Source of the DNA: a virus
Lineage: Duplodnaviria > Caudoviricetes
Direction: 5' to 3' (one strand)
DNA: 35,049 nt
IMG/VR virus record: IMGVR_UViG_3300010362_000058
Coordinates: 1 to 35,049 of that record
Below are positions 4,525 through 28,685 of the stretch, piece after piece (position 1 is the stretch's first letter; every line of letters starts with the position of its first letter). The notes under the pieces were generated by a model. It was not told the origin of the DNA. It saw nothing but the letters and a program-made list of their open reading frames with translations, and ran no database searches. The position numbers and the translations under genes are program-made.

Positions 4525-5238
4525 ATGGGCGCGATGCTGTTTTCCGACATGACGCTGGGCCGGTTGGAGACCAAGGCCGTCGCCGACGGTGACGAGGTCG
4601 CGCACTTTGCCGGCGTCGCGTCGACGTCCGACATCGACCTAGTCGACGACATCATCGAGCCCGGCGCGTTCGGCAAGATCGTCCCCAAGGACGTCGCGCT
4701 GCTGCGCGATCATGTCGGCACCCAATGCATCGGCGGCTGGACCGGATTCGAGCAGGACGGCAAGCACCTGCGCGTCGAGGGCGACATTTCGCTCGCGATC
4801 CCGCTCGGCCGCGAAACCTACACGCTGATGAAGCAGGGATTTCTATCCGGGATCAGCGTCGGCTACCGCATCCGCAAGGGCGGGATGGCCTTCGACGAGG
4901 CCAGCGGCGTCCGCCGGATCAAGAAGGCGACGCTGGTCGAGTGCTCCATCGTCGCGGTCCCGGCCAATCGCGGGGCGCGCGTCCGCTCGGTCAAATCGCT
5001 GCTCGGGTCGCCGGCCGAATTGCACGAATGGCTGGCGGACGCCGGGTTTGACGACCGCGAGATCGACGTCGTGATCAGCCGGGGATTTGACGCGCTGCGG
5101 CGCGACGAGCGCGGCGCCCTCCGCATCCATGGGGTCGACGGGTTCGGCCGATTGCCGACCGACGACCAGTGTTCCGCTTTGGCAGAGGCCGTCCGCGGCC
5201 TCGTTAACGACGTGAGGCAGCCCAATGTCCACAGTTGA
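4525..5238 (+). CDS. HK97-family prohead protease
   Basis: D...DIIEPGAF, LLRDH, IGGW, GISVGY and ECSIVAVPAN catalytic His/Ser motifs; directly before the capsid gene. Confidence 0.93.
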   Translation: MGAMLFSDMTLGRLETKAVADGDEVAHFAGVASTSDIDLVDDIIEPGAFGKIVPKDVALLRDHVGTQCIGGWTGFEQDGKHLRVEGDISLAIPLGRETYTLMKQGFLSGISVGYRIRKGGMAFDEASGVRRIKKATLVECSIVAVPANRGARVRSVKSLLGSPAELHEWLADAGFDDREIDVVISRGFDALRRDERGALRIHGVDGFGRLPTDDQCSALAEAVRGLVNDVRQPNVHS

Positions 5239-6580
5239 GGACCGCATCGCCGAACTGCTCAAGGAGATTCAAACCGCCCGGACCGATCTGGCCAAGGGCG
5301 ACGACGCGCGGATGGCTGCCCTCGCCGAGCTTCGCGCCGACGTCGAGAAGGGGTCGAAATCGGTCGGCGAGGTCACGGCCAAAATCGACCGGATCAGCGC
5401 CGATATGGCGGCGCAGGCGACCCGGGCGCAGACGCTAGAGGCGGCAATCGAGACGCTGTCGAAGAAGGTCGGCCGGCCGGGCGGTCCGGAATTTTCCGAC
5501 GAGGTCAATCGCAAGGCCGCGCTCGGCCTGCTCGAATTGCGGCATCTCGCGCGGGTCCCGAAGCGGGACGCCGAGCACCCGTTCAAGCCGACCGAGGAGC
5601 AGATCGCCGAGGCGGCGACCGCCATCAAGGGCGTGCGCGGTCTGCTCAAGACGACCGACATCGGCAACCTCCCCGAGGATTGCCGCAAGGCGCTGACGTC
5701 GTTCAATCTCGGCTCGTCCGGCTTCATTTTGCCGCCGGAAATGTCGTCGCGCGTGCTCTCCTGCCTGGAGGACATCACCGACGTCGCCGGGCTCATGCAG
5801 AACATCACCATTAGCGGCCCGTCGATCAAATTCATGGTGGACGACGCGCGGCTCATGGAGGCGGCATGGGCGTGCCAGACCGATTGCTTCGCCAACAACC
5901 CGGCCGGCGATCTGACCCGCGGGCTCGGCGAGCTAGAGCTTAGGCCGGAGACGCTCCGCTTCATCGTGTGCACGTCGCGCGACATTTTGGAGGACGCCTC
6001 GGTCGACATGGAAACCTGGATGCTCGGCAAGGTGAACTGGGCATTCCGCAACACGATCAGCACGGCGATCATTTCCGGCGACGGGATCGGGAAGCCCATC
6101 GGCATTCTCAACCCGGCGTCGGGCATCCCCATCTGCGACGTCTCGGCGTCGACGCCCGCCGGTCAATTCACGTGGCAGGATTTGGTGCTGCTCAAGTGGC
6201 AGGTGCCGATGCAATTCCATGGCGGCGGCGGCGCCGGCGGGGGCCGCTATCTCATGAACCAGAACACCTTCGGCCTGGTGTTGACGATGTCCGACGCCAT
6301 GGGCCGGCCGATCATGATCGCGACGCCGACCGAGGCCGGGGTATTCACCATCGCCGGCTCGCCGGTGCAGATCGTCACGCAGATGCCGGACGTCGCGCCG
6401 GGATCGACCCCGGTCGCCTTCGGCAACTGGAACATCGCCTACATGGTGGTGAACCGCCGAGCCGTCACCATGCAACAGGACCCATACAGCGCCGGCTTCT
6501 GCGTGCTCTACAAGTTCGAGGCGCGCGTCGGCGGCGGGATCATTTGCGCCAACGCGGCGCGGCTGATGCGCATCCGCTAG
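5225..6580 (+). CDS. HK97-fold major capsid protein with N-terminal coiled-coil (delta/scaffold) domain
   Basis: GFILPPE, GDG.GKPIGIL, YLMN..T, G.PV, VAFGNW and RVGG motifs; helical N-terminus. Confidence 0.95.
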   Translation: MSTVEDRIAELLKEIQTARTDLAKGDDARMAALAELRADVEKGSKSVGEVTAKIDRISADMAAQATRAQTLEAAIETLSKKVGRPGGPEFSDEVNRKAALGLLELRHLARVPKRDAEHPFKPTEEQIAEAATAIKGVRGLLKTTDIGNLPEDCRKALTSFNLGSSGFILPPEMSSRVLSCLEDITDVAGLMQNITISGPSIKFMVDDARLMEAAWACQTDCFANNPAGDLTRGLGELELRPETLRFIVCTSRDILEDASVDMETWMLGKVNWAFRNTISTAIISGDGIGKPIGILNPASGIPICDVSASTPAGQFTWQDLVLLKWQVPMQFHGGGGAGGGRYLMNQNTFGLVLTMSDAMGRPIMIATPTEAGVFTIAGSPVQIVTQMPDVAPGSTPVAFGNWNIAYMVVNRRAVTMQQDPYSAGFCVLYKFEARVGGGIICANAARLMRIR

Positions 6581-6605
6581 GCCCGCGGGAGAGGAGAACC
6601 AACAC

Positions 6606-7019
6606 ATGACTTTTTCAGCGGCCGGCCAGCTTCTGGTTTTCGACGGCAAGTCGCCGAACTGGGCCGACATCAGTCCCGGCTATGCCTACGCGGTGGTGCT
6701 CGCCAACCAAACGAACGCCGACATTACCAGCGGCACGTTCACGATCCAGAGCGCGCCGGCCGATCCCGACGACCGCTGCGCGCCCGACGCCACCAAGTGG
6801 GCGGACGTCGAGGTCCAGCCGCAATGCGACGAGCATCCGCAGACGGTTGCCGGTCCGGCGACGATCACGCTCAGCACCGAGGCGCCGCTCAAGGCGCACT
6901 CGCAATGCCAATATGCGGTGCCCTGCGTTGCGCAATTCCTGCGCGTCGTCGCCGGGACCGGCGGCGCCGGCGTCGGGGTCTTTATCGTGGTGACGCGGCT
7001 GCGGCGTGTCTCCTGGTGA
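6606..7019 (+). CDS. Putative capsid decoration / head-associated protein (4 Cys)
   Basis: GAGGAG RBS; beta-rich sequence immediately after the capsid gene; function inferred from position only. Confidence 0.55.
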   Translation: MTFSAAGQLLVFDGKSPNWADISPGYAYAVVLANQTNADITSGTFTIQSAPADPDDRCAPDATKWADVEVQPQCDEHPQTVAGPATITLSTEAPLKAHSQCQYAVPCVAQFLRVVAGTGGAGVGVFIVVTRLRRVSW

Positions 7020-7029
7020 CGGGGGCGCC

Positions 7030-7389
7030 ATGCGGCTCGGCGAGGCGCAGCGCATAACGGGCGACGCCCGCATCGCCTTCCGCGGCGCCGGTCCGGCGCG
7101 CTTCCGTCTTGAGCACGCCCGCGACCGCAACGGCGAGCCCGACAGCCTGTCATGGTGCGAGGTGTCGCGGGTGAGCAACGGCGCGGCGGCGGCGCCGACG
7201 GCGGAGGGCCTCGGTCACGGCCGCATCCTCGACGGCGTGCTGGTCGACGTCGTCGACGGCAACACGGACGTTTTCTACCGCCGGCATAATGCCGGCTGGC
7301 TGCGGGTCGTCCCGCATGACCCGGACGACGCGGAGGAGACGGAGCGATGCGCCGCGTACTCGGTAACGGTGACGGGGACGACGACGTGA
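7030..7389 (+). CDS. Hypothetical protein
   Basis: GGGGG RBS before ATG 7030; overlaps the next gene's start. Confidence 0.6.
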   Translation: MRLGEAQRITGDARIAFRGAGPARFRLEHARDRNGEPDSLSWCEVSRVSNGAAAAPTAEGLGHGRILDGVLVDVVDGNTDVFYRRHNAGWLRVVPHDPDDAEETERCAAYSVTVTGTTT

Positions 7390-7634
7390 GCATGGTGGTG
7401 CATATGCGCCAGGACGCGCGCTATTCGACCGACAACGGCATCACGCTCACCGAATATGCGAGCGGCGAATTCTACGAGGTCCCTGACCACGTCGCCGCCG
7501 GCATGATTGCGCGCGGGTGGGCGGTGCCCGCCCGCTTCGACGTCGACGCGCCGCGCCCGGGCGATTCCCCGGCGGCGGCGGACGACGACGCCGGACCGCC
7601 GCCGAAGATCAAACTCAGAGGAGGCTCGTCATGA
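7386..7634 (+). CDS. Small head-associated hypothetical protein
   Basis: GTGA and ATGA overlaps at both ends; G..YEVPD..A..MI..GWA pattern typical of small post-capsid genes. Confidence 0.65.
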   Translation: MSMVVHMRQDARYSTDNGITLTEYASGEFYEVPDHVAAGMIARGWAVPARFDVDAPRPGDSPAAADDDAGPPPKIKLRGGSS

Positions 7635-7816
7635 TGGCGATGTCTATGAAGCAGCAGTGCATCTCGATTTGCGCCCCGGGCCCGACATGCGAGCTTGGCT
7701 GGTTCGCCTCGCCGTGCATGTGCACGACGTCGACGCAAGTCACGGAGCCGGCGGCGCTGCAGGCGCAGGCAACCACGGCGGGCCGGTCGCGCCGCGGTCG
7801 CGGCATTGAGGAGTAG
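7631..7816 (+). CDS. Small Cys-rich hypothetical protein (5 Cys)
   Basis: GAGGAGG RBS and ATGA overlap; MMAMSMKQQCISICAPGPTCELGWFASPCMC. Confidence 0.55.
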   Translation: MMAMSMKQQCISICAPGPTCELGWFASPCMCTTSTQVTEPAALQAQATTAGRSRRGRGIEE

Positions 7817-7820
7817 GAGC

Positions 7821-8033
7821 ATGACCCCGGCGGGACCGCCGCGAGCGATGCCGCAACAGCGGCCCTCGTTGGGCGCGGCCGTGCCGCGGTGCCAGGGCGG
7901 GCTGCTGAATGCCTCGCCTCGCGCCGCCGGGGTCGTCGCGCGCCCGCGCGCCGGCGGGATCGTCGCCGGCCCGCGGGTGGCGCGGATCGTCGCCCACAAG
8001 CGGGTCGGCCGGATCGTCGCGTGTCCATGGTGA
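7821..8033 (+). CDS. Small basic protein with four ~9-aa repeats
   Basis: AGGAG RBS; SPRAAGVVA/RPRAGGIVA/GPRVARIVA/HKRVGRIVA. Confidence 0.55.
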   Translation: MTPAGPPRAMPQQRPSLGAAVPRCQGGLLNASPRAAGVVARPRAGGIVAGPRVARIVAHKRVGRIVACPW

Positions 8034-8042: not shown

Positions 8043-8453
8043 GTGGGAATTCCGTGCGCGCCGATCAATCCCTGCCCGTGCCATCCATGGACAATCGCGC
8101 CGGGCGACACGCAGCCGCTGTTCATTGACTGGGGCGGGTGGCTGGCGTCGGTCCCCGGCTATTCGCTCAACGCCATCGAGTCGGCCGCGCTAACCGACCT
8201 GAACGTCAACCCGCCGGCGCCGGCCGATCCGGACGAGATGGCGCTCGTGTCGGGGATGGACATTGACCCGCCGGCGTCGCAGCCGGGCTTCACCAACATC
8301 GTCGGCACCGCCACCGAGAACATCGTCAAGGCCGGGGCGGACGTCCCGGTCGGCCGCGCCTATCGCCTCGACATTGCGGTGGCGGCGCGCGATTGCAACG
8401 GGCGGAAGATCGTCGCCCACGATTGCGTCTTCATCACCACGTCGCTGATCTGA
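8043..8453 (+). CDS. Virion-associated hypothetical protein (possible fibre/adaptor), Cys-containing
   Basis: GAGGTG RBS, GTG start, TGATG overlap with next gene; PGD...IDW..WL motif. Confidence 0.6.
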   Translation: MGIPCAPINPCPCHPWTIAPGDTQPLFIDWGGWLASVPGYSLNAIESAALTDLNVNPPAPADPDEMALVSGMDIDPPASQPGFTNIVGTATENIVKAGADVPVGRAYRLDIAVAARDCNGRKIVAHDCVFITTSLI

Positions 8454-9019
8454 TGGCCGATTCCCTGGACGCCGCGGACCCCGTCGTCGCCGCCTACGAG
8501 ATCGCCAAGCTGCACGCGGCGGTTGACGGCGCCTTTGACGAGCGGCTGATGCGCCACTGGTTCGAGGCGGCATGGGATTTGTGCGCCGCCATGGTCGGGC
8601 TGGTGTTCCCGCCGCTGCCGGTCGACGAGATTGTGACCGTCGCCCCCGACGGCGCCATCCTGCTGTCGTCGCCCCCGGCCGGCGACGTGCGCTTCTTCAG
8701 CGGGCCGAATCTCGTCGCGGTGCTGCCGCCGAATTCGCCATGCTTCGGGCCCCGGCCCGGCTCGCTATTCGACGACGAGTCGGGCGTCGGTCTGCGCTGC
8801 CCGGACCTGTGCTGCTATTGCAATGTGAGGGCGATTTACATCACCGACGGCGGGCTTGGGATCGAATGCGACGAGGTCCCGCCGTGGTTCGTCCAGGCGG
8901 TCGCCCGCCTATTCACCTATATCGCCGAGAACCGGGGCGACACCGAGATGGACGAGCGCGTCCTGGCAAAATCCGGCGCGAAGGCCTTCCTCGGCCCGCA
9001 CCTTTCATACGCGTTGTGA
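8453..9019 (+). CDS. Head-tail connector (HK97 gp6 / SPP1 gp15-like) with Cys-rich insert
   Basis: AKLHAAVD...D..L....AA N-terminus, VP....QAV..L..Y.ENRG C-terminus; CPDLCCYC insert. Confidence 0.8.
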   Translation: MADSLDAADPVVAAYEIAKLHAAVDGAFDERLMRHWFEAAWDLCAAMVGLVFPPLPVDEIVTVAPDGAILLSSPPAGDVRFFSGPNLVAVLPPNSPCFGPRPGSLFDDESGVGLRCPDLCCYCNVRAIYITDGGLGIECDEVPPWFVQAVARLFTYIAENRGDTEMDERVLAKSGAKAFLGPHLSYAL

Positions 9020-9021: not shown

Positions 9022-9945
9022 ATGGCGGCGCCGTCGCTCCAGATCGAATATTGGCCGACGGATCGGCTGCTGCCCTATGCCGCCAACGCCCGCACGCATC
9101 CGGAGGCGCAGGTGTCGCAGATCGCGGCGTCAATTCGCGAATTCGGGTTCAACGTGCCGTGCCTCGTCAACGACGCCGGCGAGCTTGCCGCCGGCCACGG
9201 CCGCGTCCTGGCGGCGAAGCGCCTCGGCCTCGTCGACGTCCCGGTCATCCGCCTATCCCACCTGACGGAGGCGCAGCTGCGCGCGTTCCGTCTCGCGGAC
9301 AATCGGATCGCGCTCAATTCGGACTGGGACCTTGCAATCCTGTCCGGCGAGCTAGCGCGCATCGTGAAGGAGGACGCGCTCGACCCGGCGCTGCTCGGCT
9401 TCGGGGACGACGAAATCGCGGCGCTGCTCAAGGCGCCGACCGCCGGCGACGGGGACGCCGGCGCCGCGGCCGCCGCGGCCGAGGTCAAATTGGCCGACCG
9501 CTTCGGGGCGGTCCCGTTCTCGGTGTTCAATGCGCGGGAGGGCTGGTGGCAGGACCGCAAGCGGGCCTGGATCGCGCTCGGCATTCAATCCGAGCTAGGC
9601 CGCGGCGAAAACCTGATCGGCCGGTCGCTGCATGATCGCCTGTCGATGATCCTCGGCGTTCATTACCGCGACGTCGTTCGCTTCATCGAGGAGCACCGGG
9701 CGCGCGGGCTCGACGACGCCGCCATCGAGGCCGAGGCGCAGCGCGTCGCCGGCGCCCCGGCCGGCCATGACGCGCTCGCGGTCGCCCGCGGCGTCGGGTG
9801 GACCGGCGGCGTGGCGCGCCACGATCCCGCCTTTTACGAGGAGAAGCGGGCGTGGGAGCGCGCCAACGGGCGGACAATCGACACCACCGAATTCCGGCTC
9901 CATCACTATTCCCACCGACCGCGCGGGGCGGCGAATGGCGCCTAG
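9022..9945 (+). CDS. ParB/Srx N-terminal domain protein carrying the N-terminal segment usually found in phage ParB-DNA methylase fusions
   Basis: L.PY..NARTH...QV.QIAASIREFGFN.P, AGHGR and FRLADNR motifs; then FSVFNAREGWWQDRKRAW. Confidence 0.88.
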   Translation: MAAPSLQIEYWPTDRLLPYAANARTHPEAQVSQIAASIREFGFNVPCLVNDAGELAAGHGRVLAAKRLGLVDVPVIRLSHLTEAQLRAFRLADNRIALNSDWDLAILSGELARIVKEDALDPALLGFGDDEIAALLKAPTAGDGDAGAAAAAAEVKLADRFGAVPFSVFNAREGWWQDRKRAWIALGIQSELGRGENLIGRSLHDRLSMILGVHYRDVVRFIEEHRARGLDDAAIEAEAQRVAGAPAGHDALAVARGVGWTGGVARHDPAFYEEKRAWERANGRTIDTTEFRLHHYSHRPRGAANGA

Positions 9946-14533: not shown

Positions 14534-15031
14534 ATGCCGAGGATCGACGCCCTTCGCCGCGCCGACCGGCGCCGCGCGCCGCAGGTCGGGGCGCTGCGCA
14601 GCCGGGTCACCGTCTGCACCACGGTGGAGCGGCCGGACGGCGACGTCTCGACCATCGTCGACCGGCCGGGCGTGATCCAGGTTCACGCCTCGGTCCGCCC
14701 GCTGCGCGGCGTCGAGATTTTGAATTGGAAGGCCGTCTATGGCGTGTTCACCTCGGCCACGGCGGCGCCGACCCCGTCGCATGAAATCGTCCTGCGCGAC
14801 CCGCCGGACGTGAAGATCGACATCAACCACTGGGTCTTCTGCCGCGACCGCTTTTCCGAGACCTGGTACAAGGTCCGCACCGTCGAGGATATGGGCGGCG
14901 TGCATCGCTTCCTCGTGCTGATGTGCACCGTCGAGACGATCAACGACCGGCGGTCCGACCCGGCGACGCAGCCGCCGCCGCCGGTGTGGGAGCGGCCGGA
15001 CGACGGGGAGCCGATCCCGGACCGCATATGA
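14534..15031 (+). CDS. Head-closure / head-tail adaptor (SPP1 gp16-like)
   Basis: GALRSRVTV, V.ASVRPLRG.E, SHEIVLR and Y.V..V.D.....FL.L.C pattern. Confidence 0.78.
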   Translation: MPRIDALRRADRRRAPQVGALRSRVTVCTTVERPDGDVSTIVDRPGVIQVHASVRPLRGVEILNWKAVYGVFTSATAAPTPSHEIVLRDPPDVKIDINHWVFCRDRFSETWYKVRTVEDMGGVHRFLVLMCTVETINDRRSDPATQPPPPVWERPDDGEPIPDRI

Positions 15032-15444
15032 CCGCGCTCATCGTCACCGTCACAGTCACCGGCGATATCCGCCCGCGGATCGACGACTCGGTCATTGCCG
15101 AATGGATCGACGCGCGCCTGAACGACGGGCGCAACACCTTCATTACCAACGCCAGCCGGGGCGGGGGCGGGGGGCGGACCTATGGCCGGCACACGGCGTC
15201 GGCGCCGGGCGAATATCCGGCGACCGATTCGGGGCGGCTGGTGGGCTCGGTCGACACGCAGATGAACAGCGACCGCGAGGGCGAGCTATTCAGCGACGTG
15301 GAATACGCCCGCTATCTCGCCGGCGGGACGTCGCGGATGGCGCCGCGCAAGATGGTTTACGAGGCGCTGACCGAGGCGCTCGACGCGCGGCCGGATTTCG
15401 AGGCGCTCGCCGCGGCGGTGAAATTCGACGGGGGCGGCGCATGA
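15028..15444 (+). CDS. Neck / tail-completion protein (HK97 gp10-like)
   Basis: HTASAPGEYPATDSGRL..S and YA.YL..GTSRMAPR motifs. Confidence 0.8.
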   Translation: MTALIVTVTVTGDIRPRIDDSVIAEWIDARLNDGRNTFITNASRGGGGGRTYGRHTASAPGEYPATDSGRLVGSVDTQMNSDREGELFSDVEYARYLAGGTSRMAPRKMVYEALTEALDARPDFEALAAAVKFDGGGA

Positions 15445-16199
15445 CGACGCGCCGCAATGGGGCGGCCAACGGGACCGCCAACGGCGCGCCGCCGCGGGCG
15501 CCGGGCGCGACGGTCCCGGGCGGTCCGCCGGTCGTCGACAGCCTCTACAACCGGGTCACGCGGCGGGTCCGCGGCGCCCGGACGCTATTCGGCGACAATG
15601 TCAAGCTGGTGATGCGGCAACTCGACCAGGAGCACTGGTCGCTGCTGCAACTGCCCTACTGCCTCGTCGTCCCGACGGTCACGCGCCCGCAGCATCTGCG
15701 GCCCCAGGACGCGGACTATGATTCGATCATCAACCCGCGGTCGATCACGTTCATTGCGCAGCTAGACGGGCGGGGATCGGAGGCCGAGCACCTCGCGGCC
15801 AACGACGTCGAGCTAGCCGAGAAGCAATTGATCGGCGCGCTGGTCAATTGGCGACCGGAGCGGCATTACCGGCCGACCACCTACGGCGGGATGCGGCTGA
15901 TTGCGTCGCGCGCGCCGGACGTCAAGGTGTCGTTCGTTTTCATATTCTACGAGGAGCTGGTCATGCCGGACGAGGAGATCGGCGCCGACGACGTCGCGGT
16001 GCTCGGCGACATCACGGTCCACGTCGTCGATCCGTGCTGCGCATGTCCGCCGCCGGAACCCGAGTGTGTCCCGACGCCGAGCATTTATGTTACAGGTGGC
16101 GGCTGCGCGGTCGACGATCCGTGCTGCCGGCCCGAGCCGTGCATTTCGCCGTTAGAGGCCGCGCGTGGTGGAGGAGCCAATGAAAGCGACGACGTTTGA
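15441..16199 (+). CDS. Tail terminator (Mu gp37-like) with Cys-rich C-terminal extension
   Basis: LPYCLVVP, L..ALVNWRP and Y.G motifs; synteny before the sheath; DPCC...PEP.C twice. Confidence 0.65.
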   Translation: MTTRRNGAANGTANGAPPRAPGATVPGGPPVVDSLYNRVTRRVRGARTLFGDNVKLVMRQLDQEHWSLLQLPYCLVVPTVTRPQHLRPQDADYDSIINPRSITFIAQLDGRGSEAEHLAANDVELAEKQLIGALVNWRPERHYRPTTYGGMRLIASRAPDVKVSFVFIFYEELVMPDEEIGADDVAVLGDITVHVVDPCCACPPPEPECVPTPSIYVTGGGCAVDDPCCRPEPCISPLEAARGGGANESDDV

Positions 16200-16635: not shown

Positions 16636-18174
16636 ATGGCGCAAAACGGAATTTCCCTAGCCGCCGCGCGCGGCAACTTCCTGACGTGGTGCATCTCCGG
16701 CTATTTGCCGCTTCAGGAACTATGCCGCCCGCTGTTCATCGGACAGCAACTTGACGGCGCCGAGGGCGTCCCGGGCGAATACTACATTCTCTATTCGGCC
16801 AACGAGGCGCGCGCCAAGTTTGGCATGGGTTCGATTCTGGCCTGGATGGCCAAGCAGCACTTCGACTGCTGTCCGGAATTGCCGCTCTATGCCGCGCCGG
16901 TCGCCGACCCGACGACGGGCGCCACCGCCGCGGTCAACACCATCACGATCACCGGGCCGGCGACGGACAACGGGGCGCTGTCGGTTTCGATCCTGGACGA
17001 AATGTTCGCCGTGGGCGTGATCGCCGGCGCGACCGCCGACAACATGGCCGCGGCGCTCGCGGCCGAATTGCAGAAGAACGCCGATTTGCCGTTCACCGTC
17101 ACGGTTGCGGCCGGCGTTATTACGCTGACGGCGAAGAACAAGGGGCCGGCGGGCTCCTGGTTCTCGCCGATTTGGAACCCGAATTTCGGCGACGCCTTCC
17201 CGGCCGGCGTCACCGTCGTGTCCGCGCAGACGACGCCGGGCACCGGCGTGCTCGACGTCGACGCCGCGATCCCGGCAATGGCGTGTCCCTGGGATTGCAT
17301 CGCCCTCGGCACCGAGGACGAGATCGCGGTCAACACCTTCGTCCTATTGGTCCGGCAGAACTGGCGCTGCGGCGTCCAAGGGAATTTCAAGGACGGGCAT
17401 CTGTTCCATAGCCGGACCGACAGCGCCGGGCAGATCGCCGCCTATGGGCGCGACCGCAACAATCCGGAGGAGTGCGTCGTTCCCGTCCGGACCGGCTACA
17501 AGTATCCGGGCTATATCATGGCGGCAGCGTTCGCCTCGCGCGTCTGCTGTACGGCATGCGTCGACCCGTCCCGCCCGGTCCAATACGACAACGGCGTCCT
17601 CTGCCTGCTGTACGATTCGCGGGTCTGTGCCAGCATTTGGACGACGGAGGAAAAGCGCGCATTTTACGACGCCGGCATCGCCAACTGGGACGTCGCCTAC
17701 TCGCGCGGCGTGCGCCAGACCGCGCTATGGATCGAGGAGCCGCTGACGACGTACAAATATGACCCCATGACCGGCGCGCCCGACGGCGCCTGGCAGCGGG
17801 TCGAAAGTCGCTACACGACGGCGAAATTCGTCCGCGACCTGGGCAACTGGTATCGCCGTAACTATGCGTCCGTCAGCCTGGTCAGCGACGGAACGCGCAT
17901 CCCGCAGGGCAAGCGCGCGGTATCGCCGCGTATTCTGCAAGCGTCGATCCTGGCCTGGTTGCGCGGGACGCAAATCGGCTGGACCGCCGAGGACCCCGGC
18001 CAGCTTGAGCGCATGGTCCGGGTCGAGCGGACGAACACGCCGAACAATTGCGACCCGAACCGGGTCAACGTGCTGATCGACCTGGATCTGGTCAACCAGC
18101 TAGCGCGCATCGCAACCAGCATCGACGTGTCGCCGGAATTCGCCTGCATTCCGCCGATAGCCGTCGCGGCCTAA
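16636..18174 (+). CDS. Contractile tail sheath protein (Mu gpL-like), 15 Cys
   Basis: GGGAGGG RBS; FGMGS.LA.M, ITLTAKNKG..G, DPSRP, TTYK and DPNRVNV...DLVNQL motifs. Confidence 0.93.
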   Translation: MAQNGISLAAARGNFLTWCISGYLPLQELCRPLFIGQQLDGAEGVPGEYYILYSANEARAKFGMGSILAWMAKQHFDCCPELPLYAAPVADPTTGATAAVNTITITGPATDNGALSVSILDEMFAVGVIAGATADNMAAALAAELQKNADLPFTVTVAAGVITLTAKNKGPAGSWFSPIWNPNFGDAFPAGVTVVSAQTTPGTGVLDVDAAIPAMACPWDCIALGTEDEIAVNTFVLLVRQNWRCGVQGNFKDGHLFHSRTDSAGQIAAYGRDRNNPEECVVPVRTGYKYPGYIMAAAFASRVCCTACVDPSRPVQYDNGVLCLLYDSRVCASIWTTEEKRAFYDAGIANWDVAYSRGVRQTALWIEEPLTTYKYDPMTGAPDGAWQRVESRYTTAKFVRDLGNWYRRNYASVSLVSDGTRIPQGKRAVSPRILQASILAWLRGTQIGWTAEDPGQLERMVRVERTNTPNNCDPNRVNVLIDLDLVNQLARIATSIDVSPEFACIPPIAVAA

Positions 18175-18186: not shown

Positions 18187-18561
18187 ATGGCGACCTGCAT
18201 CAAGTGCAAGGGCGTTCTGAATTTTGTCGTGAGCGGCCGGACGATCCGCCTCCAGTCCGACGGCGACGTCACCGTGCTGGTGTCGAACCAGAATCGCACG
18301 GAGACCTACGACGGCGAATTCACCATGGAGGACCGCAATCCGAAGATCATCGCGACGGTCGTCGTCCCCATCGACCTGTACGTCCGTTATTTCCAGGAAC
18401 TCTGCAACGTGCCGGTGGTCCTCGAGCTATGCGACGGGCGGACGTTTTCGGCCGAGGGCATGTCCAACATTTCGCAGGATCCCTACGACGCTAAAAACAA
18501 CACCCAGCCCATGGAATTGATCACGGACGAGATCGTCGAATTGCTGCCGCAGGCGGCATGA
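18187..18561 (+). CDS. Tail tube protein (Mu gpM-like)
   Basis: Size, position after the sheath, V.LELCDGRTF pattern. Confidence 0.85.
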   Translation: MATCIKCKGVLNFVVSGRTIRLQSDGDVTVLVSNQNRTETYDGEFTMEDRNPKIIATVVVPIDLYVRYFQELCNVPVVLELCDGRTFSAEGMSNISQDPYDAKNNTQPMELITDEIVELLPQAA

Positions 18562-19331: not shown

Positions 19332-21479
19332 ATGGCGGACTCCCACGCCGTCACCGTCACGCTCGGGCTCGAAACCAGGGGCGAGGAAAAGTTCGACGCC
19401 GTCTCGGACAAAATCGCCAACATCAAGGCCCAGGCGGGCGAGGCGACGGCGGCAATCCAGGAGTCGATGCCGAAGGCCGCCAAGGCCATCGAGGACGTCG
19501 GCGCCAAGACCAGCAAGGCCGTCGACGATTTGCGCGCCAAGCTGCCGGGCGTCGAAATGCCGAATCGGCAATGGGAGTGGCTGAAGCCGGGCGGGCAATA
19601 TATCGGCAAGGGCTCGGAGGCGGCAGCGGCCGAGGCGAAGGCTACGACCGAGACGGCGGCGCTCGCCGCGTCGGTAGGCGGGCTCGGGATTGCCGCCGCC
19701 GCGGCGACCGGGCTCCTGATCTCGCTGGCGGGCACGATCAAGGTGATGAGTGCCGCGGTCGACGCCGCGCAGCAGAGCGCGGCGAACGTCACCAAGGACT
19801 GGGGGCGGGCGCAGCGCAGCGGCGAAGAACTGAGCAAGTCGCAGGTCGAGGCGTCGACCGGGGCGCAATTCTTCGGCCGGCAATTGGACCTCGTCCAGTC
19901 GCAACTTCAGAAGCGGGTCACCGAGGCCCGGATCGAGAAGAAGCCGGGCCTATTCGAGCAGGTCGGCATCACGCCGGACGTCCTCCAGCAGATGCAGCAG
20001 GCGGGCCGGTTCACGCCCACCGGCGTCCTCGAATTCCTGACGTCGATGAAGGAGGCCAACCAGGCCGCGCTGGAGGCGGCCAAGACGACCGGCAAGCCGG
20101 AGGCTATCGCGGCGGCCACCGAGCAGGTGACGAAGTTCAGCCAGAACGTCGCCAACCTATTCGGCCGGGCAATGGAAACGGCCATGCAGGAGACGTCGAC
20201 GCAGGCCATAGCCGACGCGCGCGCCCGCCAAGAACGGGCACAGGGCTTGTTTGAGGCGACGCAGACGACCGTCGACAATGCGCTCGCCCTGAAAAACGCC
20301 TTCGGCGAATTGGACACCACGATGAGCAGCCTCCGCGACCGCTTCGGCGCGGGGGCGACCGAGTCCATTACCGGGTTCATCGACTCGTACACGCAAAAGA
20401 TTCAGCAGTCCGGCGCCGGCGTGTCCGACGCGCTATCGCGGCTAGCCAGCGAGGGGTTCAACCAGCTGAAGGCGGCGGTCGACGGGATCGACGCCAACGC
20501 GATGGCGTTCACCATCAAGGACGTGGTCGAGCAATTGCGCGGCGGCATCGAGACGCTCGGCTCCGTCCTGCAGGGCCTCGTCACGACAATCAACGCGCTC
20601 AATCAGGCCGGCCAATACCTGAGCAATTTCCAAAGCGCCGTGCAGGAATTCGCCCGCGATTTCGGCCTGCGCGGCCTGACCAAGGCGATGCTCGGCGAGG
20701 AGACGGCCAGCAAGATATTCGGCAAAATGGAATCGGCGCGCGAGAAGCAGGCGCGCGAGGAGGCCGAGGCCCGCGAAAAGGCCAGCGCCGAGGCGGCGAA
20801 GAAGGCGGCGGCCGAGCCAATAACCCCGGCGGCGAAGCCGGCGGCGGCGGCCGCGGCCGAGGCCGAGGTCGCCAAGGCCAAGGCGAAGGCGCCGCCCATC
20901 GACCTGACCGGAATTGATTTGACGCCCGCCGCCGCGGCGTTCGCGGGGGCGCTCGCCAGCCAGATCGACCTCACGCCGGCCGCCGGTCCGCTCGCGGCGG
21001 CGATCAACAGCCAGATCGACCTGACGTCCAAGGCCGCCGGCATTGGGGAGGCGATCACCGCCGGGATCGACCTCACGTCGAAGGCCGCCGGCGTCGGCGA
21101 GGCGATTGCCGCCGGGATCGACCTCACGTCGAAGGCCGCCGGCGTCGGCGAGGCGATCACCGCCGGGATTGATATTGCCTCCAAGGCGGTCGGCGTCGGG
21201 GAGCAGATCAGCGCCGGCGTCGACTTCACGTCGGCGGCGTCGACCGTCGCCTCAACGATCAATTCCGGCGTGAATTTCACCGGCGCGGCCCAGGCCGCCG
21301 TCGCCACGCTTAGCGCGGTCAACTGGAATGCCGCGGCATCGGCCGCCGGCGCGACTATCGCGGCGGCGATCAGCGGCGCGGCGGCCGGGATCAGGGTGCA
21401 GGTGACCGGGTCGGTGGCCGGCGCCTCGGTCAGCAGCGGCGGCAAGCCGACCGGCCGCGACGTCCCGGCGGGAGATTGA
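19332..21479 (+). CDS. Tape measure protein
   Basis: Long Ala/Gly-rich helical ORF after the chaperone; hydrophobic segment; C-terminal repeats. Confidence 0.85.
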   Translation: MADSHAVTVTLGLETRGEEKFDAVSDKIANIKAQAGEATAAIQESMPKAAKAIEDVGAKTSKAVDDLRAKLPGVEMPNRQWEWLKPGGQYIGKGSEAAAAEAKATTETAALAASVGGLGIAAAAATGLLISLAGTIKVMSAAVDAAQQSAANVTKDWGRAQRSGEELSKSQVEASTGAQFFGRQLDLVQSQLQKRVTEARIEKKPGLFEQVGITPDVLQQMQQAGRFTPTGVLEFLTSMKEANQAALEAAKTTGKPEAIAAATEQVTKFSQNVANLFGRAMETAMQETSTQAIADARARQERAQGLFEATQTTVDNALALKNAFGELDTTMSSLRDRFGAGATESITGFIDSYTQKIQQSGAGVSDALSRLASEGFNQLKAAVDGIDANAMAFTIKDVVEQLRGGIETLGSVLQGLVTTINALNQAGQYLSNFQSAVQEFARDFGLRGLTKAMLGEETASKIFGKMESAREKQAREEAEAREKASAEAAKKAAAEPITPAAKPAAAAAAEAEVAKAKAKAPPIDLTGIDLTPAAAAFAGALASQIDLTPAAGPLAAAINSQIDLTSKAAGIGEAITAGIDLTSKAAGVGEAIAAGIDLTSKAAGVGEAITAGIDIASKAVGVGEQISAGVDFTSAASTVASTINSGVNFTGAAQAAVATLSAVNWNAAASAAGATIAAAISGAAAGIRVQVTGSVAGASVSSGGKPTGRDVPAGD
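20913..21370 (+). repeat. About nine 17-aa (51-nt) tandem repeats in the tape measure C-terminus
   Basis: IDLTSKAAGVGEAITAG and degenerate copies. Confidence 0.9.
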
Positions 21480-21483: not shown

Positions 21484-22704
21484 ATGGCGACCGATTGCCT
21501 CGTCCCCGGGTTCATGGAGGCTAGCTGGAAGGGCGTTCCCTTCCATGTCGAGTCGTCGTCCGACGATTTCGGCCGGCGCGGCGACCTCTACGAGTATCCG
21601 CTATCGGAGCAGACCGGATACAAGGATCTCGGTCGGAAGGCCCGGCGCTTCAACGTCGAGGGCTATCTGATCGGCGGCAACCAGGTGGCGCTGACCGTCG
21701 CCATGGCGACGGCGGCCGAATCGCCCGAGCCCGGGATGCTGATGCACCCGATCTATGGGCCGCAGCTGGTCGCCTGCGTGAAGCTGACGACGTCGGCGGA
21801 ATATCGCGCCAAGAAACGGCTGACCAAGCTGTCCTTCGACTTCGTCGAGGGGACGGCGTCGATGGCGCCGTACATGATCGGCGCCGCCGTCTCGGCGCTG
21901 TTCGCGTCCGGCTCCAGCGCCGTGGCGGCGTCGAAGCCGCAGGCGATATGGGTCCCGACGGCGACGACCGACGCCGCCGCACGCGACATCAGCGACGCGC
22001 TCGCGCGCCAGATCGCGCCGGCGGTAGACGAGGACTCCTACGACGCGATTTCGCGGCTAGAGCGCGGCGACCCGCTGACGATCTTCCATTCCGTCGAGGA
22101 GATCGTCCCAGTGGCGCGGATCGGCGCGCCCCGCGCGGCGGCGCCGCCGTCGACCGTCATGCTGCCGCGGCCATACCCGACCTTCGCCGACGTCGTCGAC
22201 CCGATAGACGACGGCACCGCGACGGTCCGGCGCATCCATGCGGACGCGCTCCGCCGGCTGCGGGAATTCAACGCCTATGTGGTCGACCGTCAGGAGGGGT
22301 CGCCGTCCGTGCAATCGCTGGTGCTTTCCACGCGTCTCGCCATGATCCGGGATTATGCGCTGACCGCGGCGCAATCGACCTACCAGACCGTGACCGCCGC
22401 CGTCGCCGATCTGGACTTCGTCATGGCGGTTTATGACGACGAGGAGCGGGCGGCGGCCGACCGCTGCGACGACGCGCTGGTGACGGCGATCCGGGCGGCG
22501 CGCGCGGACGCGGCCAGCACGATCCTGGCGCAGAACGTCCGCCTCCCCGGCGTGACGGAATCGTCCGCCGACGGCGTCTGGCCGTCGGTCGTCGTCGCCC
22601 ACAAGCTCTACGGCGACGGCAAGCGATACGGCGACGTCGAGTCCTACAACCCGCAGATGCCGCCGTTTTTTATCGGGCGCGCGGTGGTCGCGCCGTCGGC
22701 ATGA
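21484..22704 (+). CDS. Mu gpN-like DNA circularisation / tail protein
   Basis: ASWKGVPFHV, GRR...YEYP, DLGR, PG.L.HP.YG and PS.V.A..LYGD motifs. Confidence 0.9.
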   Translation: MATDCLVPGFMEASWKGVPFHVESSSDDFGRRGDLYEYPLSEQTGYKDLGRKARRFNVEGYLIGGNQVALTVAMATAAESPEPGMLMHPIYGPQLVACVKLTTSAEYRAKKRLTKLSFDFVEGTASMAPYMIGAAVSALFASGSSAVAASKPQAIWVPTATTDAAARDISDALARQIAPAVDEDSYDAISRLERGDPLTIFHSVEEIVPVARIGAPRAAAPPSTVMLPRPYPTFADVVDPIDDGTATVRRIHADALRRLREFNAYVVDRQEGSPSVQSLVLSTRLAMIRDYALTAAQSTYQTVTAAVADLDFVMAVYDDEERAAADRCDDALVTAIRAARADAASTILAQNVRLPGVTESSADGVWPSVVVAHKLYGDGKRYGDVESYNPQMPPFFIGRAVVAPSA

Positions 22705-23838: not shown

Positions 23839-26009
23839 GCCAGCGGAATTGGGAACATTGGCTATTCTTGCAGCACAAAGTCCGCAACGTGCTGCGGCGC
23901 GGCTACCTGCTGAAAACCTACTACGACAAGAAGATCATGCAGGGCCGGATCAAAACCGGCGTTGAGATCGAGAACGATCGGCTCGACTGGCTGCACCCGG
24001 TCGGCTTCCTCGGCCGCGTCAAGCCCGGCGACAAGGTTGAGATCCTGACCATGGACGTCGGCGCCGACCCGTCGCGCCGGGTCATCGCCTGGGTCCTCGG
24101 CGACCGCGAGCACCATCCGAAGATCGAGGAGGGCGAGTCGATTCTCTATTCGCCCGGCGACAAAAAGAAATTTGTCAGGGTGTACAAAAAGCCGCAGCAG
24201 GATCAGGGCGGCGGCGGCGGGGGCGGGGGCCGCGCCGACGGCGGCGGCGACGGCCAGCAGAGCGAAAGCAAGGAGGGCATTCACACCAACGCCGACGATC
24301 TGCCGATTTCGTCGCAAACCAAGGACACATATCAATCGAACGCCGACAAGGGTCAGGGCTTCAGCACCCAGGCGAATTTCGACATCAAGGCGGGCCAGAA
24401 CACCCAATTCGAGGCGGCGAAGCACGTCCGCAAGGGGACCACCTATCGCGACGGCGACACCTACACCAACGGCGTCGAGCACGCGACCGATCACGTCGCC
24501 GGCGGCGGGGCGACCGTATCGCCGCCCGGGGCGCGCGCCGGCACGGCCGAACACCCGGACGGCTCGCAGACGTGGGGCGCGAGCGGAAAGCCGGGGACGA
24601 CGTCGCTGCTGGATATTGGGGCGCGGGTCGCGGCGCTCGAGGAAGGCGGCGGCGGCGGCCAGCCCGGACCGCCCGGTCCGCCGGGACCCCAGGGGCCGGC
24701 GGGGCCGCCCGGCGCGACCGGGCCGCAGGGAGCACAGGGGCCCAAGGGCGACAAGGGCGATCCGGGTCCGACGGGACCGCAGGGCAATCCGGGGGCGACC
24801 GGCGCCCAGGGACCGAAGGGCGACACCGGCGCCCAGGGACCAAAGGGCGATACCGGCGCGACCGGCGCCCAGGGGCCACAGGGCGCCCCGGGGGCGACCG
24901 GCCCGCAGGGACCGAAGGGCGACACCGGCGCCCAGGGACCGACGGGGCCGCCGGGGCCGGGCATTTCCGACGGCGACAAGGGCGACATCACCGTCAGCGG
25001 CGGCGGCACGGTCTGGACGATTGACCCGCAGGCGGTGACGTACCCCAAAATTCAGAACGTCACCGCCACCGACCGCATCCTCGGCCGCGCGTCGGCCGGC
25101 GCCGGGACGGTCGAGGAAATCGTCTGCACGCCGGCGGGACGGGCGCTGCTCGACGACGTCGACGCGGCGGCGCAGCGGACGACGCTGGGGCTGGGCAATG
25201 TCACCAACACCAGCGACGCGCAGAAGCCGGCCTATGGCCCATGCGGGCGGCTGGTCTTCGTCGGCCCGACGCAAATCAATTTCCGGCCGTACAACGGCGA
25301 CCGGGTGCGCATCAACGGCGCATGGGTTGCAATCCCGGCGGCCGGCGTGACGGCGGCCAACACCGGCGTAACCGTCGACGGGGCGACCGGCAATCTCGTG
25401 GGCAATGTGACCTATCTCGTCGGCGCCCAGCTTTCCGGCGGCAATATCGTCCTGTCGTTTTGGTCGGGCGTCGCGCACGCGCCGTCGCAAACCGCCGGCA
25501 ACGTCGGCACCGAAATTATCGCCAACAACGACGTGTTCACCCTTGTCGGCCTGGTGCGCGCGGACGCGTCCGGACAATTTTTCGACATTGGCACGCTGTC
25601 GTGGTTCAACCGGGGCGGCAAGTTGCAGCGGCGGGCTATTACCGCCGTTGCCACGGTCACGACGACGGCCGAGACGGAGGTGTCCGCCGATTTCCGCATC
25701 CCGTTCGCCACGTGGGCCGACGAGGTGGTGATGCTCATGCTCGGCGGCGCCGCCTATCCGTCCGCGGTCGCCGGGGCGCGCATCGTCGCCGGCGTTAGCC
25801 TCGACGGCGCGGCCTCGGAAACCCCCCGGGCCACGATTCAGGGCGAGACGACCTTTGGGGCCTACGGGAGCCTGTCGGCCAGCGTCATGAGGCGGCTGGC
25901 GGAGGGCGGGCATTCCGCTACGGTGGTGGCGCGCGTCGGCGGGGCCGGGCAGGTCGGGACGTTCGATCTCGACAACCCGGCGATCCTCCAGGTGTCCGTG
26001 CGAGGCTAA
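23835..26009 (+). CDS. Baseplate spike (Mu gp45-like) fused to collagen and tail-fibre-like domains
   Basis: N-terminal HPVGF...PG.....VG.D....I...DR......GES.LY; 34 Gly-X-Y triplets; fibre motif [18 protein letters not shown]. Confidence 0.85.
24657..24962 (+). repeat. Collagen triple-helix repeat (34 G-X-Y triplets)
   Basis: [12 protein letters not shown]...GPKGDTGAQ...GPPGPG. Confidence 0.95.
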
Positions 26010-26014
26010 AGGCC

Positions 26015-26608
26015 ATGCCAACCATTGATCCGCTGGTGAATCCCTGCGCGCCGCCGCCGCCGCGCTGCAAGTCGCCCATCGGGCCGCTATTCCGGCCGGG
26101 CATATCGGCGCGCCAGATCCCCGATTGCGGTCCCGACTATTGCGGCCTGCTCGGCTGCGGATCGCCGAATTGGCGCGTGACGAATGCCGGGACGCTGGAT
26201 CGCTCCCGCTGGGTCGAGGGCTGGGTCGCAACCCAGCTGTTCACGCGCGGCGAGGTGTCGTGCGAGGAGCATCCGCTCGGCCGGCGCGCCGGCGGCTGGT
26301 GGGCGGACGCCTTTCGCCGCGACCGCTTCAAATCCGGGTCCAAGCTGTGGTCGCTCAAGTGGGCGCCGGTGACGAATGACACCCTCATCATCGCCAAGCA
26401 ATTCGCCCTGGAGGCGCTCCAATACCTCCTCACCTGGGGGATTGCGTCGCGGCTGACGGTCGACGCGCGCTACATCAGCCGACATGTTATAGGCTTGCAG
26501 GTGACGGTCGCCGGTCCGGGCGTGTCGGCATCGCTCGCGTTCGAGGGACAGGTAACGCCGAACGCCGGCTGGCTCTGGCAGGAATACCGGGGGACGCCAT
26601 GGCGCTAA
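26015..26608 (+). CDS. Baseplate wedge protein (Mu gp46-like) with Cys-rich N-terminal arm
   Basis: LFT, GWWAD, GSKLW.L and A..AL..L motifs. Confidence 0.88.
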   Translation: MPTIDPLVNPCAPPPPRCKSPIGPLFRPGISARQIPDCGPDYCGLLGCGSPNWRVTNAGTLDRSRWVEGWVATQLFTRGEVSCEEHPLGRRAGGWWADAFRRDRFKSGSKLWSLKWAPVTNDTLIIAKQFALEALQYLLTWGIASRLTVDARYISRHVIGLQVTVAGPGVSASLAFEGQVTPNAGWLWQEYRGTPWR

Positions 26609-27792
26609 TCACCTCGATTGATTGCGTTCTGCCGCGGCCCGACATCGGCGTGCTTCAGGAGCAGGTGCGCACCGAGCTATCGGACCGGCTGCTAGGCGGG
26701 GCGCCGGTCCTCCCGATGTCGTCGGAGGACGTCCTCGCCTTCGTCATGGCCGGCGTGGCCAATCTGATGCACGGCTTCGTCACGCAGGCGCTCAAGGAAA
26801 ATGACCCGGCGACGATGTGCTGCGACAACCTCATCACCTATGGGGCGCGGCGCGGGATCGACCTGCGCGCCTCGACGCGCGCCAAGGGCTATGTCGCGAT
26901 CACGGGCACGCCCGGCGCGGCGATCCCGGCGACCATCCGCTTCGTTGGCGAGTCGTCGCGCGAGTACAAGCTCGATCCGGCGGTCACCTTCAACCCGACG
27001 GCGCTCGACGCCGCCGGCGGGGCGGTCCTGCGCGTCGCCGCGACGCTAGGCGGAACGGCGTTCAACCTCGACGCCGGCGCCGCCCTTGTCGTCTCGACCA
27101 CGTTCCCCGGGATCGACCTCGCGGCGACGGTCGTCGGCAATGGAATTATCGGCGGGACCGACAACGAGACGTGCGAGCAGCTGCGCGCCCGGGTCGTCGC
27201 CGACGAGGCCGCCGGCGTCGTCACCACCAACGGCAAATGGTATTTGCAGCAGGCGGGGCGCTATCCCGGCGTGACCCGCGCCTGCTTCGACGAATGCGAG
27301 GGCTGCTGCGATCCGCAGCACGTCGTCATTTACCCGTTCATGGAGGGCGTTTATGGCGACGCCACCCACGCGCCCTATGGCGTCCCGCCCGGCGAGGTTC
27401 TGTGCGAGATGTCCGAGTGGATGTTCGGCCATGCCCGGGCGCACGGCGAGGGACTCGCGCCGATTGGGATCACCGGCCAATTCGCCCAGGCGCTGCCGAC
27501 GCACATGGTATTGCGGGTCTTTTGCTTCCGCGGCTGTCCGGCCGGGGCGGAGGCGCGCATCCTGACGGCGGTCCAGGCGCTGGTCCGCGCGACGACCTGC
27601 GTCGGATCGAAAATCTGCAAGGAGCAGGTTCGCGCCGCCGCCTATGCCGCGGTTGGTCCCGACATCTGCTTTTCGACAATCTATCTTGCGTTCGATCCGA
27701 CCCTATGGCGGCAGGACGACGCCTACGCCTATCTCGCGTGCGGGCACTTCCTGGTCGTCGACGGCGTCGAACTAGTTGACACATTCGCATGA
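26599..27792 (+). CDS. Baseplate J / Mu gp47-like protein, 15 Cys
   Basis: A.GYV.ITG.PG..IP, GG.D.E..EQLRARV and PGVTRA motifs. Confidence 0.9.
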   Translation: MALITSIDCVLPRPDIGVLQEQVRTELSDRLLGGAPVLPMSSEDVLAFVMAGVANLMHGFVTQALKENDPATMCCDNLITYGARRGIDLRASTRAKGYVAITGTPGAAIPATIRFVGESSREYKLDPAVTFNPTALDAAGGAVLRVAATLGGTAFNLDAGAALVVSTTFPGIDLAATVVGNGIIGGTDNETCEQLRARVVADEAAGVVTTNGKWYLQQAGRYPGVTRACFDECEGCCDPQHVVIYPFMEGVYGDATHAPYGVPPGEVLCEMSEWMFGHARAHGEGLAPIGITGQFAQALPTHMVLRVFCFRGCPAGAEARILTAVQALVRATTCVGSKICKEQVRAAAYAAVGPDICFSTIYLAFDPTLWRQDDAYAYLACGHFLVVDGVELVDTFA

Positions 27793-28685
27793 CGACCGGC
27801 CCCGACGTCCCCGCGATCCTCTGCTATGCGCCCGACGCCTGCTGCGGCGCGTCGCCGTGCGCGGTCGACGAGGACGAGTTCGTTTGTCAGGTCAGGTCGT
27901 TGCTGCCCGAGGGCGAGCCGTGGAACAACACGCGCCCGTCCGCCGCGACGCCGGCGGTAAACGAGGGCGCCATTACCGTCGGGTGCGCCCGCGTCGGGTG
28001 CGAGCAGCTTGTTCTCGGCGGCTGCTGCGCCGACAACATCCCGTGCGAGGACGTCCCGGTCGCCCCGCAATTGGCGGTAGTCGACGCATTTTCCGCCGTC
28101 GGCCACGGCGCGGTGATCGCCCTATGCCGGGCGCTGCGCGAGCTGGACCCGTGCACCGCCGACGCGACCATCCGCCATTGGGCCGACCGCTTCGGGATCG
28201 GACGACCGGACCCATGCGGGCCACCGTTCCCCGACGCGGTCCTCGCGGTGCTGGTGTGCCTGTTCGTGCGACTGCGCCGGGAGGTTATCAACCTCGCGTT
28301 CCTCCACGAGCTTGCCGCCGCCTTCGGCGCCGACCTCGTCGTCCGCGACGCCGGCGACATGAACTGCGGCCCGCTCGGATGGTGGACCATGGCGCGGACG
28401 CGTCCGGCCTGTCCGGAGACCGCGCTGTGCCCGCCGGCCCCGCCGGACAATGTGCCGTTTGTCCGCATGGTGGCGTGCAGCCCGACGCTGCCGCCGTCGC
28501 TCAACTTCGTGCTGTCGCCGGCCGACATCAACCTCCCGCCGAATTGCAACCTGCCGCCTAATCCGGCGACGCGACCGCATGATCCGGACCTCTACCAGGC
28601 CTTCAAATGGCTGCTGCCGCAAATCCTGCCGCAAAGCATCCTCGCCTGCGTCTATGAGCGGGACCCGGCTAACTGCATCGTTTGA
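27789..28685 (+). CDS. Baseplate protein (Mu gp48 / YmfQ-like), 21 Cys
   Basis: LLPEGEPW, ELDP.TA...I..W...FG...C and LAAAFG motifs. Confidence 0.82.
   Translation: MTTGPDVPAILCYAPDACCGASPCAVDEDEFVCQVRSLLPEGEPWNNTRPSAATPAVNEGAITVGCARVGCEQLVLGGCCADNIPCEDVPVAPQLAVVDAFSAVGHGAVIALCRALRELDPCTADATIRHWADRFGIGRPDPCGPPFPDAVLAVLVCLFVRLRREVINLAFLHELAAAFGADLVVRDAGDMNCGPLGWWTMARTRPACPETALCPPAPPDNVPFVRMVACSPTLPPSLNFVLSPADINLPPNCNLPPNPATRPHDPDLYQAFKWLLPQILPQSILACVYERDPANCIV

Follow-up and report, generated by a model that had tools for sequence, protein, structure and literature searches.

The subject of this analysis is the cysteines in the virion proteins encoded by a 35,049-nucleotide viral DNA fragment (IMG/VR record IMGVR_UViG_3300010362_000058; this whole stretch is hereafter the window). 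Its guanine–cytosine (GC) content is 68% and its 5′ end falls within the terminase gene, after which come genes for a portal, a protease, an HK97-type capsid, the neck, a Mu-type sheath, the tube, a tape measure, the baseplate, fibers, and a GH25 lysin. The compared stretch of Agrobacterium phage Milano, which excludes gp124–gp127, shows the same gene order, and the main proteins of the two are 22–31% identical. Judged from gene order and protein similarity, the window holds the structural operon of a phage distantly related to Milano and to a second Agrobacterium phage, 7-7-1. Its nearest relatives are uncultured viral contigs, of which four near-complete ones span 62–68 kb; prokaryote genomes, scanned twice, yielded no relative. 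The genus-level threshold lies at about 70% nucleotide identity. The genus Schmittlotzvirus is defined by high genome-wide similarity to Milano and 7-7-1, and with main proteins only 22–31% identical the window falls outside it; a tree of sheath proteins places the window clade on a long branch separate from Milano. Coordinates below are those of the window, on the + strand unless stated otherwise.

Cysteine content of the virion proteins

An original prediction, made from the sequence alone, held that cysteines are systematically concentrated in external structural proteins and absent from non-virion and lumenal ones. The hand counts behind it are all reproduced: 8 cysteines in the capsid, 7 in neck 1 (the head–tail connector), 15 in the sheath, 4 in the tube, 6 in the gp46-like and 15 in the J-like baseplate proteins, 21 in the gp48-like protein of 298 amino acids (aa), and none in the terminase fragment, tail chaperone, tape measure (715 aa), or GH25 lysin. 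Set against their homologues, the seven core proteins are enriched in cysteine beyond chance. They contain 76 cysteines in 2167 residues (3.51%) in the window and 71 in 2166 (3.28%) in Milano, versus 18 in 1819 (0.99%) in the Mu-type myophage SfV (window over SfV, Fisher p = 8e-8). The lack of cysteines in the tape measure (19332..21479) and the chaperone is ordinary, because the tape measure (0/611) and chaperone of SfV are also cysteine-free; the Milano tape measure is too (0/778).

The wider contrast between virion and non-virion proteins did not survive a full count. The 14 non-virion open reading frames (ORFs) hold 46 cysteines in 3163 residues (1.45%), as against 127 in 7007 (1.81%) for all virion proteins pooled (p = 0.21), and restricting the comparison to external virion proteins reaches only p = 0.06. 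A methylase–pyridoxal phosphate (PLP) enzyme fusion at 9935–12157, omitted from the original prediction, accounts for 24 of the 46, and its exclusion lowers the non-virion figure to 0.91%. A complete relative, G002, contains 1.41% cysteine over the 50 genes predicted from its terminase onward. Nor is the enrichment systematic within the virion, as the portal (4/430), hub (2/375), spike-fiber (2/724), and fiber (6/610) are all cysteine-poor. The signal is limited to 12 proteins of the shell, neck, sheath, tube, and wedges (102/2917, 3.5%; p 3e-7), a set picked after the counts were seen, so that its p value is not a clean test.

Cysteine positions shared with Milano

In the available parts of two reports on Milano (PMC10811340, PMC10491603), the capsid, collar, neck, sheath, tube, and baseplate are described as disulfide-linked on the basis of cryo-electron microscopy (cryo-EM) and mass spectrometry. 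Dithiothreitol (DTT) abolishes the resistance of the virion to sonication and heat, and contraction required guanidine together with DTT. The Milano sheath has three inter-subunit bonds, two of which (C14–C244 and C216–C327) survive contraction while the third, C47–C182, breaks; the latter is called the lock below (PMC10811340, PMC10491603).

Since alignments favor cysteine–cysteine matches, cysteines were masked, as a control, before 15 protein families were realigned. Under masking, 32 of the 91 aligned window cysteines land on Milano cysteines, with 2.75 expected: eight in the sheath, five in wedge 2, four each in the capsid and cement protein, two each in the collar, neck 2, centerpiece, wedge 1, and wedge 3, and one in the portal. 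In unmasked alignments both partners are kept for 17 of 37 inter-chain Milano bonds, and for 7 of 17 bonds that are intra-chain or of another kind (one partner in 3, none in 7); this bond list omits the bonds of tail spike gp124 and linker gp16, two distal fiber bonds, and inner/outer duplicates. Conservation among relatives points the same way: across 13 proteins, each compared with 2–13 relatives, 67 of 90 cysteines are invariant versus 1121 of 3365 other residues (33%). Location at positions bonded in Milano or 7-7-1, conservation, and the pairwise co-variation described next together bear out the proposed inter-subunit stapling of capsid, sheath, and baseplate, and make disulfides a very likely feature of this virion.

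The tail sheath (16636..18174) is the most informative of these proteins. Its best match of solved structure is Milano gp20, both by sequence (E 1e-35) and by fold (template modeling [TM] score 0.87; model predicted local distance difference test [pLDDT] 84), with Mu next. Ten of its 15 cysteines are invariant in all of the 52–58 close relatives (55–88% identity) that cover the column; these align to Milano C14, C26, C75, C216, C244, C300, C303, C327, C467, and C501, and complete five Milano bonds. The Milano inter-subunit pairs C14–C244 and C216–C327 are present as C19/C245 and C217/C331, and bonds are predicted at both; they are the two that persist in the contracted Milano sheath. Bonds are likewise predicted for C472–C504, C30–C308, C79–C305, C78–C323, and C221–C304, which assigns 14 of the 15 cysteines to pairs and leaves C280 single. 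The last two pairs co-vary strictly. Among 54 full-length sheaths of the clade, 221 and 304 are both cysteine in 44 and neither in 10, and 78 and 323 both in 6 and neither in 48, with no sheath carrying one alone. The pair 77/324 (both in 24, neither in 30, single in none) serves as a positive control because it corresponds to the intra-chain Milano bond C73–C320; the window carries the alternatives 78/323 and 221/304. On a cysteine-masked tree, 77/324, 78/323, and 221/304 change 7, 3, and 2 times, always jointly. Two other candidates, 86/300 and 280/323, failed in the pair-count and tree tests.

What the window sheath lacks is the lock. The equivalents of C47 and C182 are I51 and F184, and no cysteine occurs between residues 80 and 216. 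In none of the 54 clade sheaths, the window included, does a cysteine fall within 5 and 8 columns of the two lock positions, and among 109 aligned sheaths the lock is seen only in Milano. A profile search extended the comparison to 150 sheath representatives, 148 of them new and 137 full length. Most of these distant full-length sheaths are cysteine-poor (fewer than seven in 105 of 137; median 2); the ten core cysteines are entirely absent from 105, and the other 32 have four to ten of them. The pair 217/331 is kept in all 32 distant cysteine-rich clusters. Of the 32 sheaths with at least seven cysteines, a set that overlaps almost fully with that of the core cysteines, the lock is confined to P0112, which shares 70% identity with Milano. 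Because core sheath cysteines recur in 32 of 137 distant clusters, the net, as far as sheath sequences reveal it, is far wider than Agrobacterium phages. Named records include P0063, a Milano-type sheath with 20 cysteines and no lock whose source label is Bradyrhizobium elkanii, and phage Ssp-JY38 (L002), whose sheath is also cysteine-rich without the lock; by this pattern, the net is not confined to Agrobacterium phages even among named records. The sheath tree was built by a quick method with cysteines masked (80 rows, excluding P0085–P0106 and any row no longer than 450 aa). An open node unites the window clade, P0060/61, a cysteine-poor group, and the Milano group, and the tree carries a long-branch warning; for these reasons it cannot tell whether the net is ancestral.

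The tail tube (18187..18561) follows a scheme of its own. All 21 distinct full-length relatives have C4, C7, C73, and C82, although C4 and C7 were partly selected for, being part of one of the two search patterns. Single-sequence PDB and profile searches with the tube found nothing significant. The alignment suggests that the tube may be cross-linked by bonds other than those of Milano, via the invariant C7 and C82. Upstream, a probable tail terminator (15441..16199), assigned by synteny with the gp18 position and by alignment only, bears a Cys/Pro-rich C-terminal extension with 8 cysteines. The extension is poorly conserved, and one of nine cysteines is invariant.

Head, neck, baseplate, and neighboring genes

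The major capsid protein (5225..6580) has the HK97 fold (Pfam PF05065) and matches the capsids of RcGTA (E 2e-24), 7-7-1 (E 3e-15), and Milano (E 8e-14) in the PDB. In an alignment with four relatives, C180, C217, C221, C249, C426, and C441 correspond to Milano gp9 C186, C223, C227, C252, C440, and C455; C304 is invariant with no assigned Milano match, and C153 is not conserved. Equivalents of Milano C186 and C455 are thus kept while those of C302 and C456 are lacking. The available part of PMC12796354 lists the 7-7-1 capsid bonds, among them capsid–capsid C444–C227 and C186–C459. The window has both partners of both, with 7-7-1 C-terminal numbering taken as Milano plus four rather than aligned. 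This pairing is suggestive of a better fit to 7-7-1 than to the Milano table, and the invariant C304 could replace C302.

Several accessory parts of the Milano head lie in ORFs that the original prediction left unnamed. By profile and synteny, the cement protein and the collar are among them, and the linker likely so. The minor capsid or cement protein (6606..7019), an orthologue of Milano gp10, gave nothing significant in a single-sequence PDB search; a profile search recovered gp10 (E 1.3e-4), and the top three Foldseek matches are all from Milano or 7-7-1. Its four cysteines, 58, 74, 101, and 107, equal gp10 C60, C74, C99, and C105, and all four coincide under masking. G002 carries two tandem copies of the four-cysteine cement gene (22753–23793; L030:6753–7793, − strand). 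A small linking protein (7634..7816), assigned by synteny and unmasked alignment, is likely the equivalent of Milano LP2 (gp128). Its pattern CxxxC...C...PCxC recurs at all five related loci that were read, with no coincidence in the masked control. Capsid–cement and cement–linker bonds keep both partners in 4 of 4 cases, the linker match being unmasked only. A homologue of LP1 (gp16) was not found in the window or in G002. A 70-aa ORF with two cysteines (7821..8033) has no family match and no Milano counterpart found; it and a second small basic two-cysteine ORF (1137–1352), also of no family match, have homologues in related contigs and are candidate extra disulfide linkers.

The collar protein (8043..8453) has the wall domain of Milano gp13 only, with five invariant cysteines. 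It matches gp13 in two pieces, residues 21–72 and 197–227 (E 7.9e-6), and the decorating domain (70–166) is missing. Of the disulfide-linked collar that joins neck 1 and the sheath in Milano, the bond C22–C211 is kept; equivalents of C19, C23, and C229 were not found. Neck 1 (8453..9019 within ORF 8393–9019) resembles Milano gp14 (BLAST E 3e-6) and has seven cysteines, four invariant, whose residue-level match to Milano is uncertain. The gp15-like neck 2, or head closure (14534..15031), has three, of which two match Milano C13 and C112.

At the other end of the tail, the baseplate and fiber network is partly retained, with both partners present for nine bonds that include the centerpiece–wedge 2 pair and three fiber anchors. 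In the centerpiece (21484..22704; Mu N, Milano gp25), C5, C98, and C328 equal gp25 C5, C100, and C318. Wedge 1 (26015..26608; gp46-like, Milano gp28) has six cysteines, four of which align to Milano C3, C22, C32, and C74; its C48, part of one of the 17 kept inter-chain bonds, is retained in just 4 of 13 relatives. Wedge 2 (26599..27792; J-like, Milano gp29) has 15 cysteines, of which 14 are invariant in 12 relatives and eight align to Milano cysteines, the Milano set C234/C282/C395 being absent. Near-full-length matches to this protein were confined to OLIVR4, Milano, 7-7-1, and two phages whose records name Synechococcus (6 of 105 records). Centerpiece C328, found in 10 of 12 relatives, and wedge 2 C9, found in 12 of 12, match Milano C318 and C3. 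Wedge 3 (27789..28685; gp48-like, Milano gp30) keeps 19 of its 21 cysteines invariant in 11 relatives; hhalign links it to gp30 (E 6e-4, probability 29%), and no match was found in the PDB, by single-sequence or profile search, or among annotated phage records. The tail fiber (28755..30587) begins with a Milano gp31-type anchor, in which C41 equals the anchoring C38 (11 of 11 relatives). A second fiber-like protein with the same anchor (31818..33179; C45 equals gp31 C38, 9 of 9 relatives) is encoded downstream of the lysin gene, beyond the coordinates of the original prediction. At the spike position (23835–26009), a 724-aa protein contains collagen repeats and a fiber-like C-terminus; its counterparts in relatives are 274–968 aa long.

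Three further features stand among or beside these genes. Between neck 1 and neck 2, an insertion at 9022–12157 consists of a ParB-N-domain gene followed by the 740-aa fusion, whose domains are methyltransferase-like, cysteine-rich DUF3109-like, and PLP-dependent enzyme. It is possibly a DNA- or metabolite-modifying cassette, and relatives L007 and L012 have no room for it at the equivalent place. On the opposite strand within the structural operon (12416–13393, −) lies a 325-aa Ala/Lys/Pro-rich ORF with no Pfam or NCBIfam match. Beside the lysis genes, a 206-aa ORF (33485–34105) has no match in Pfam, PHROGs, or NCBIfam and is 88–95% conserved in three relatives.

Proposed assembly and gating, and known systems

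Taken together, these sequences very probably describe a distant Milano-like phage head and contractile tail, in which a disulfide net strengthens the virion and a sheath devoid of the blocking pair contracts while cross-linked. The proteins would assemble in the reducing cytoplasm with their thiols pre-positioned, and the thiols would oxidize at or after lysis, by air or host periplasmic oxidants and with no phage-encoded oxidase, as Milano leads one to expect. The available part of PMC13576161 states that no phage oxidase has been described. Thioredoxin (PF00085) was not detected in any of five related records, four of which are ≥90% complete; 13 of 14 controls were positive. No thiol oxidoreductase turned up when 38 predicted G002 proteins were scanned against Pfam (35 of the 50 called from the terminase onward, plus three small tail-region ORFs), DsbA-type families not having been searched by name; an Erv1/Alr search was positive in no control and hence is uninformative on a phage-encoded oxidase. 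The covalent net would run from the capsid through cement, linker, and collar to the sheath, tube, wedges, and fiber anchors. Capsids would be tied to one another by C180–C441 and C221–C426, to cement by C217–C107 and C249–C74, and cement to linker by C101–C9 and C58–C13, with the fibers suspended from the wedges by their cysteine anchor.

Redox gating, which the original prediction entertained for either the sheath or the baseplate, fares differently at the two sites. The sheath, with C47–C182 absent and no cysteine in residues 80–216, would need no reducing, because its remaining bonds are compatible with contraction. A gate in the baseplate is plausible: in the available text, the Milano authors argue that the centerpiece–wedge 2 pair must break ahead of firing (PMC10811340, PMC10491603), and this pair is kept here. 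Any redox-sensitive trigger would then lie between centerpiece C328 and wedge 2 C9, not in the sheath.

Several observations weigh against this account. The bonds of this virion are predictions from its genes. One partner only is kept for 12 of the 37 inter-chain Milano bonds and neither for 8. Masked coincidences are zero for the tube, neck 1, linker, terminator, and hub, and residue assignments in these proteins therefore rest on cysteine-driven alignments. Both Milano tube bonds, C3–C19 and C43–C82, are incomplete, with C4 kept, C73 one column off C82, and C19 and C43 absent. The link between wedge 3 and gp30 is weak and mostly N-terminal, and many wedge cysteines lack an equivalent in Milano and might be metal ligands. 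No co-varying sheath pair is significant on independent contrasts (5, 3, and 2, all concordant; p 0.06, 0.25, and 0.5). Finally, a different sheath lock is conceivable through C280 or other proteins.

That last point grows into an unlikely alternative, in which the same net holds and the sheath is still redox-locked by a substitute bond, through the variable C280 or through links from the collar, terminator extension, or wedge. Unpaired C280, the eight-cysteine tail of the terminator, and the 21 cysteines of wedge 3 (14 in Milano) would supply the material. Yet only 20 of the 54 sheaths have C280, its column shows 12 changes on the tree, and no other column varies in step with it, while the other 14 sheath cysteines are all accounted for and the extension domain, site of Milano C182, has no cysteine in the window sheath or in 52 of 54 clade sheaths. 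That the cysteines are mainly structural zinc or iron ligands is less probable again. The invariant tube C4–C7, sheath C305–C308, and wedge 2 C233–C236–C237 do have the look of metal-binding CxxC and CC motifs; the Milano equivalents of the sheath CxxC, C300 and C303, nevertheless bond the distant C75 and C26. Metal sites, the other explanation offered in the original prediction, are thus unsupported as a general one, since the cysteines match positions of disulfides in two cryo-EM studies (Milano and 7-7-1) and strict two-residue co-variation suits disulfides, not sites of three or four ligands. Hardest to credit is that the cysteines stay reduced, as leftovers of ancestry or as compositional noise in a GC-rich genome. 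Non-virion ORFs do bear cysteines at 1.45%, and the 50 predicted genes of G002 at 1.41%, but cysteines are invariant more than twice as often as other residues, are kept at 22–31% identity, and are lost in pairs.

The disulfide interpretation thus very probably holds, whereas the phenomenon itself is not new, having been published for Milano in 2023–24; the core idea is established for both Milano and 7-7-1, and the added value here is comparative. A lineage with contraction-compatible sheath bonds but no lock separates armor from trigger and points to the baseplate for redox gating, and the paired gains and losses amount to a bond map for a clade that comprises over 50 uncultured sheaths. One might tentatively go further, with slightly less than even confidence, and propose that disulfide welding of the whole virion is old and widespread in a large radiation of uncultured myophages, its conserved sheath bonds being compatible with contraction, the Milano lock being a recent add-on, the redox switch of this lineage residing in the baseplate (centerpiece C328 to wedge 2 C9), the tube using a new C4/C7/C73/C82 scheme, and the whole not being an adaptation to Agrobacterium or the flagellum. 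In the available text, the Milano authors tie the net to the Agrobacterium host, speculate on redox triggering, and leave open how the bonds are reduced during infection (PMC10811340, PMC10491603). In the open-licence literature, no paper was found on the net beyond Agrobacterium phages or on the restricted range of the lock.

Among known systems, Milano (MK637516, Schmittlotzvirus) is the closest likeness, sharing the HK97-type head, Mu-type contractile tail, identical gene order, cement protein, small linker, collar, cysteine-free tape measure, and fiber anchor cysteine. The window differs in lacking the C47–C182 lock, in a tube with C7 and C82 instead of C19 and C43, in a collar without the decorating domain, in the 21 rather than 14 cysteines of wedge 3, and in a spike fused to collagen and fiber domains (724 aa versus 188 aa). 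With 7-7-1 it shares the capsid–cement–linker disulfide scheme; by alignment, 7-7-1 retains the sheath lock cysteines, and two of its intra-capsid bonds have no partners at the aligned window positions. Cyanophage Pam3, likened here by description and not by homology, also has fibers joined to cysteine-rich wedge regions by disulfides, and DTT frees the fibers and induces contraction; in the available part of that report, bonds are described in the wedge and fibers only (PMC9942802). The available part of PMC13576161 deals with siphovirus tubes and cites a further virion-wide case, PD491P1. Tails of the Mu/SfV type, finally, have a sheath of the family found in the window (about 30% identity to SfII/SfV; Mu TM 0.83) and an equal set of baseplate genes, but are cysteine-poor, in keeping with the 105 of 137 distant sheath representatives that have none of the ten core cysteines.

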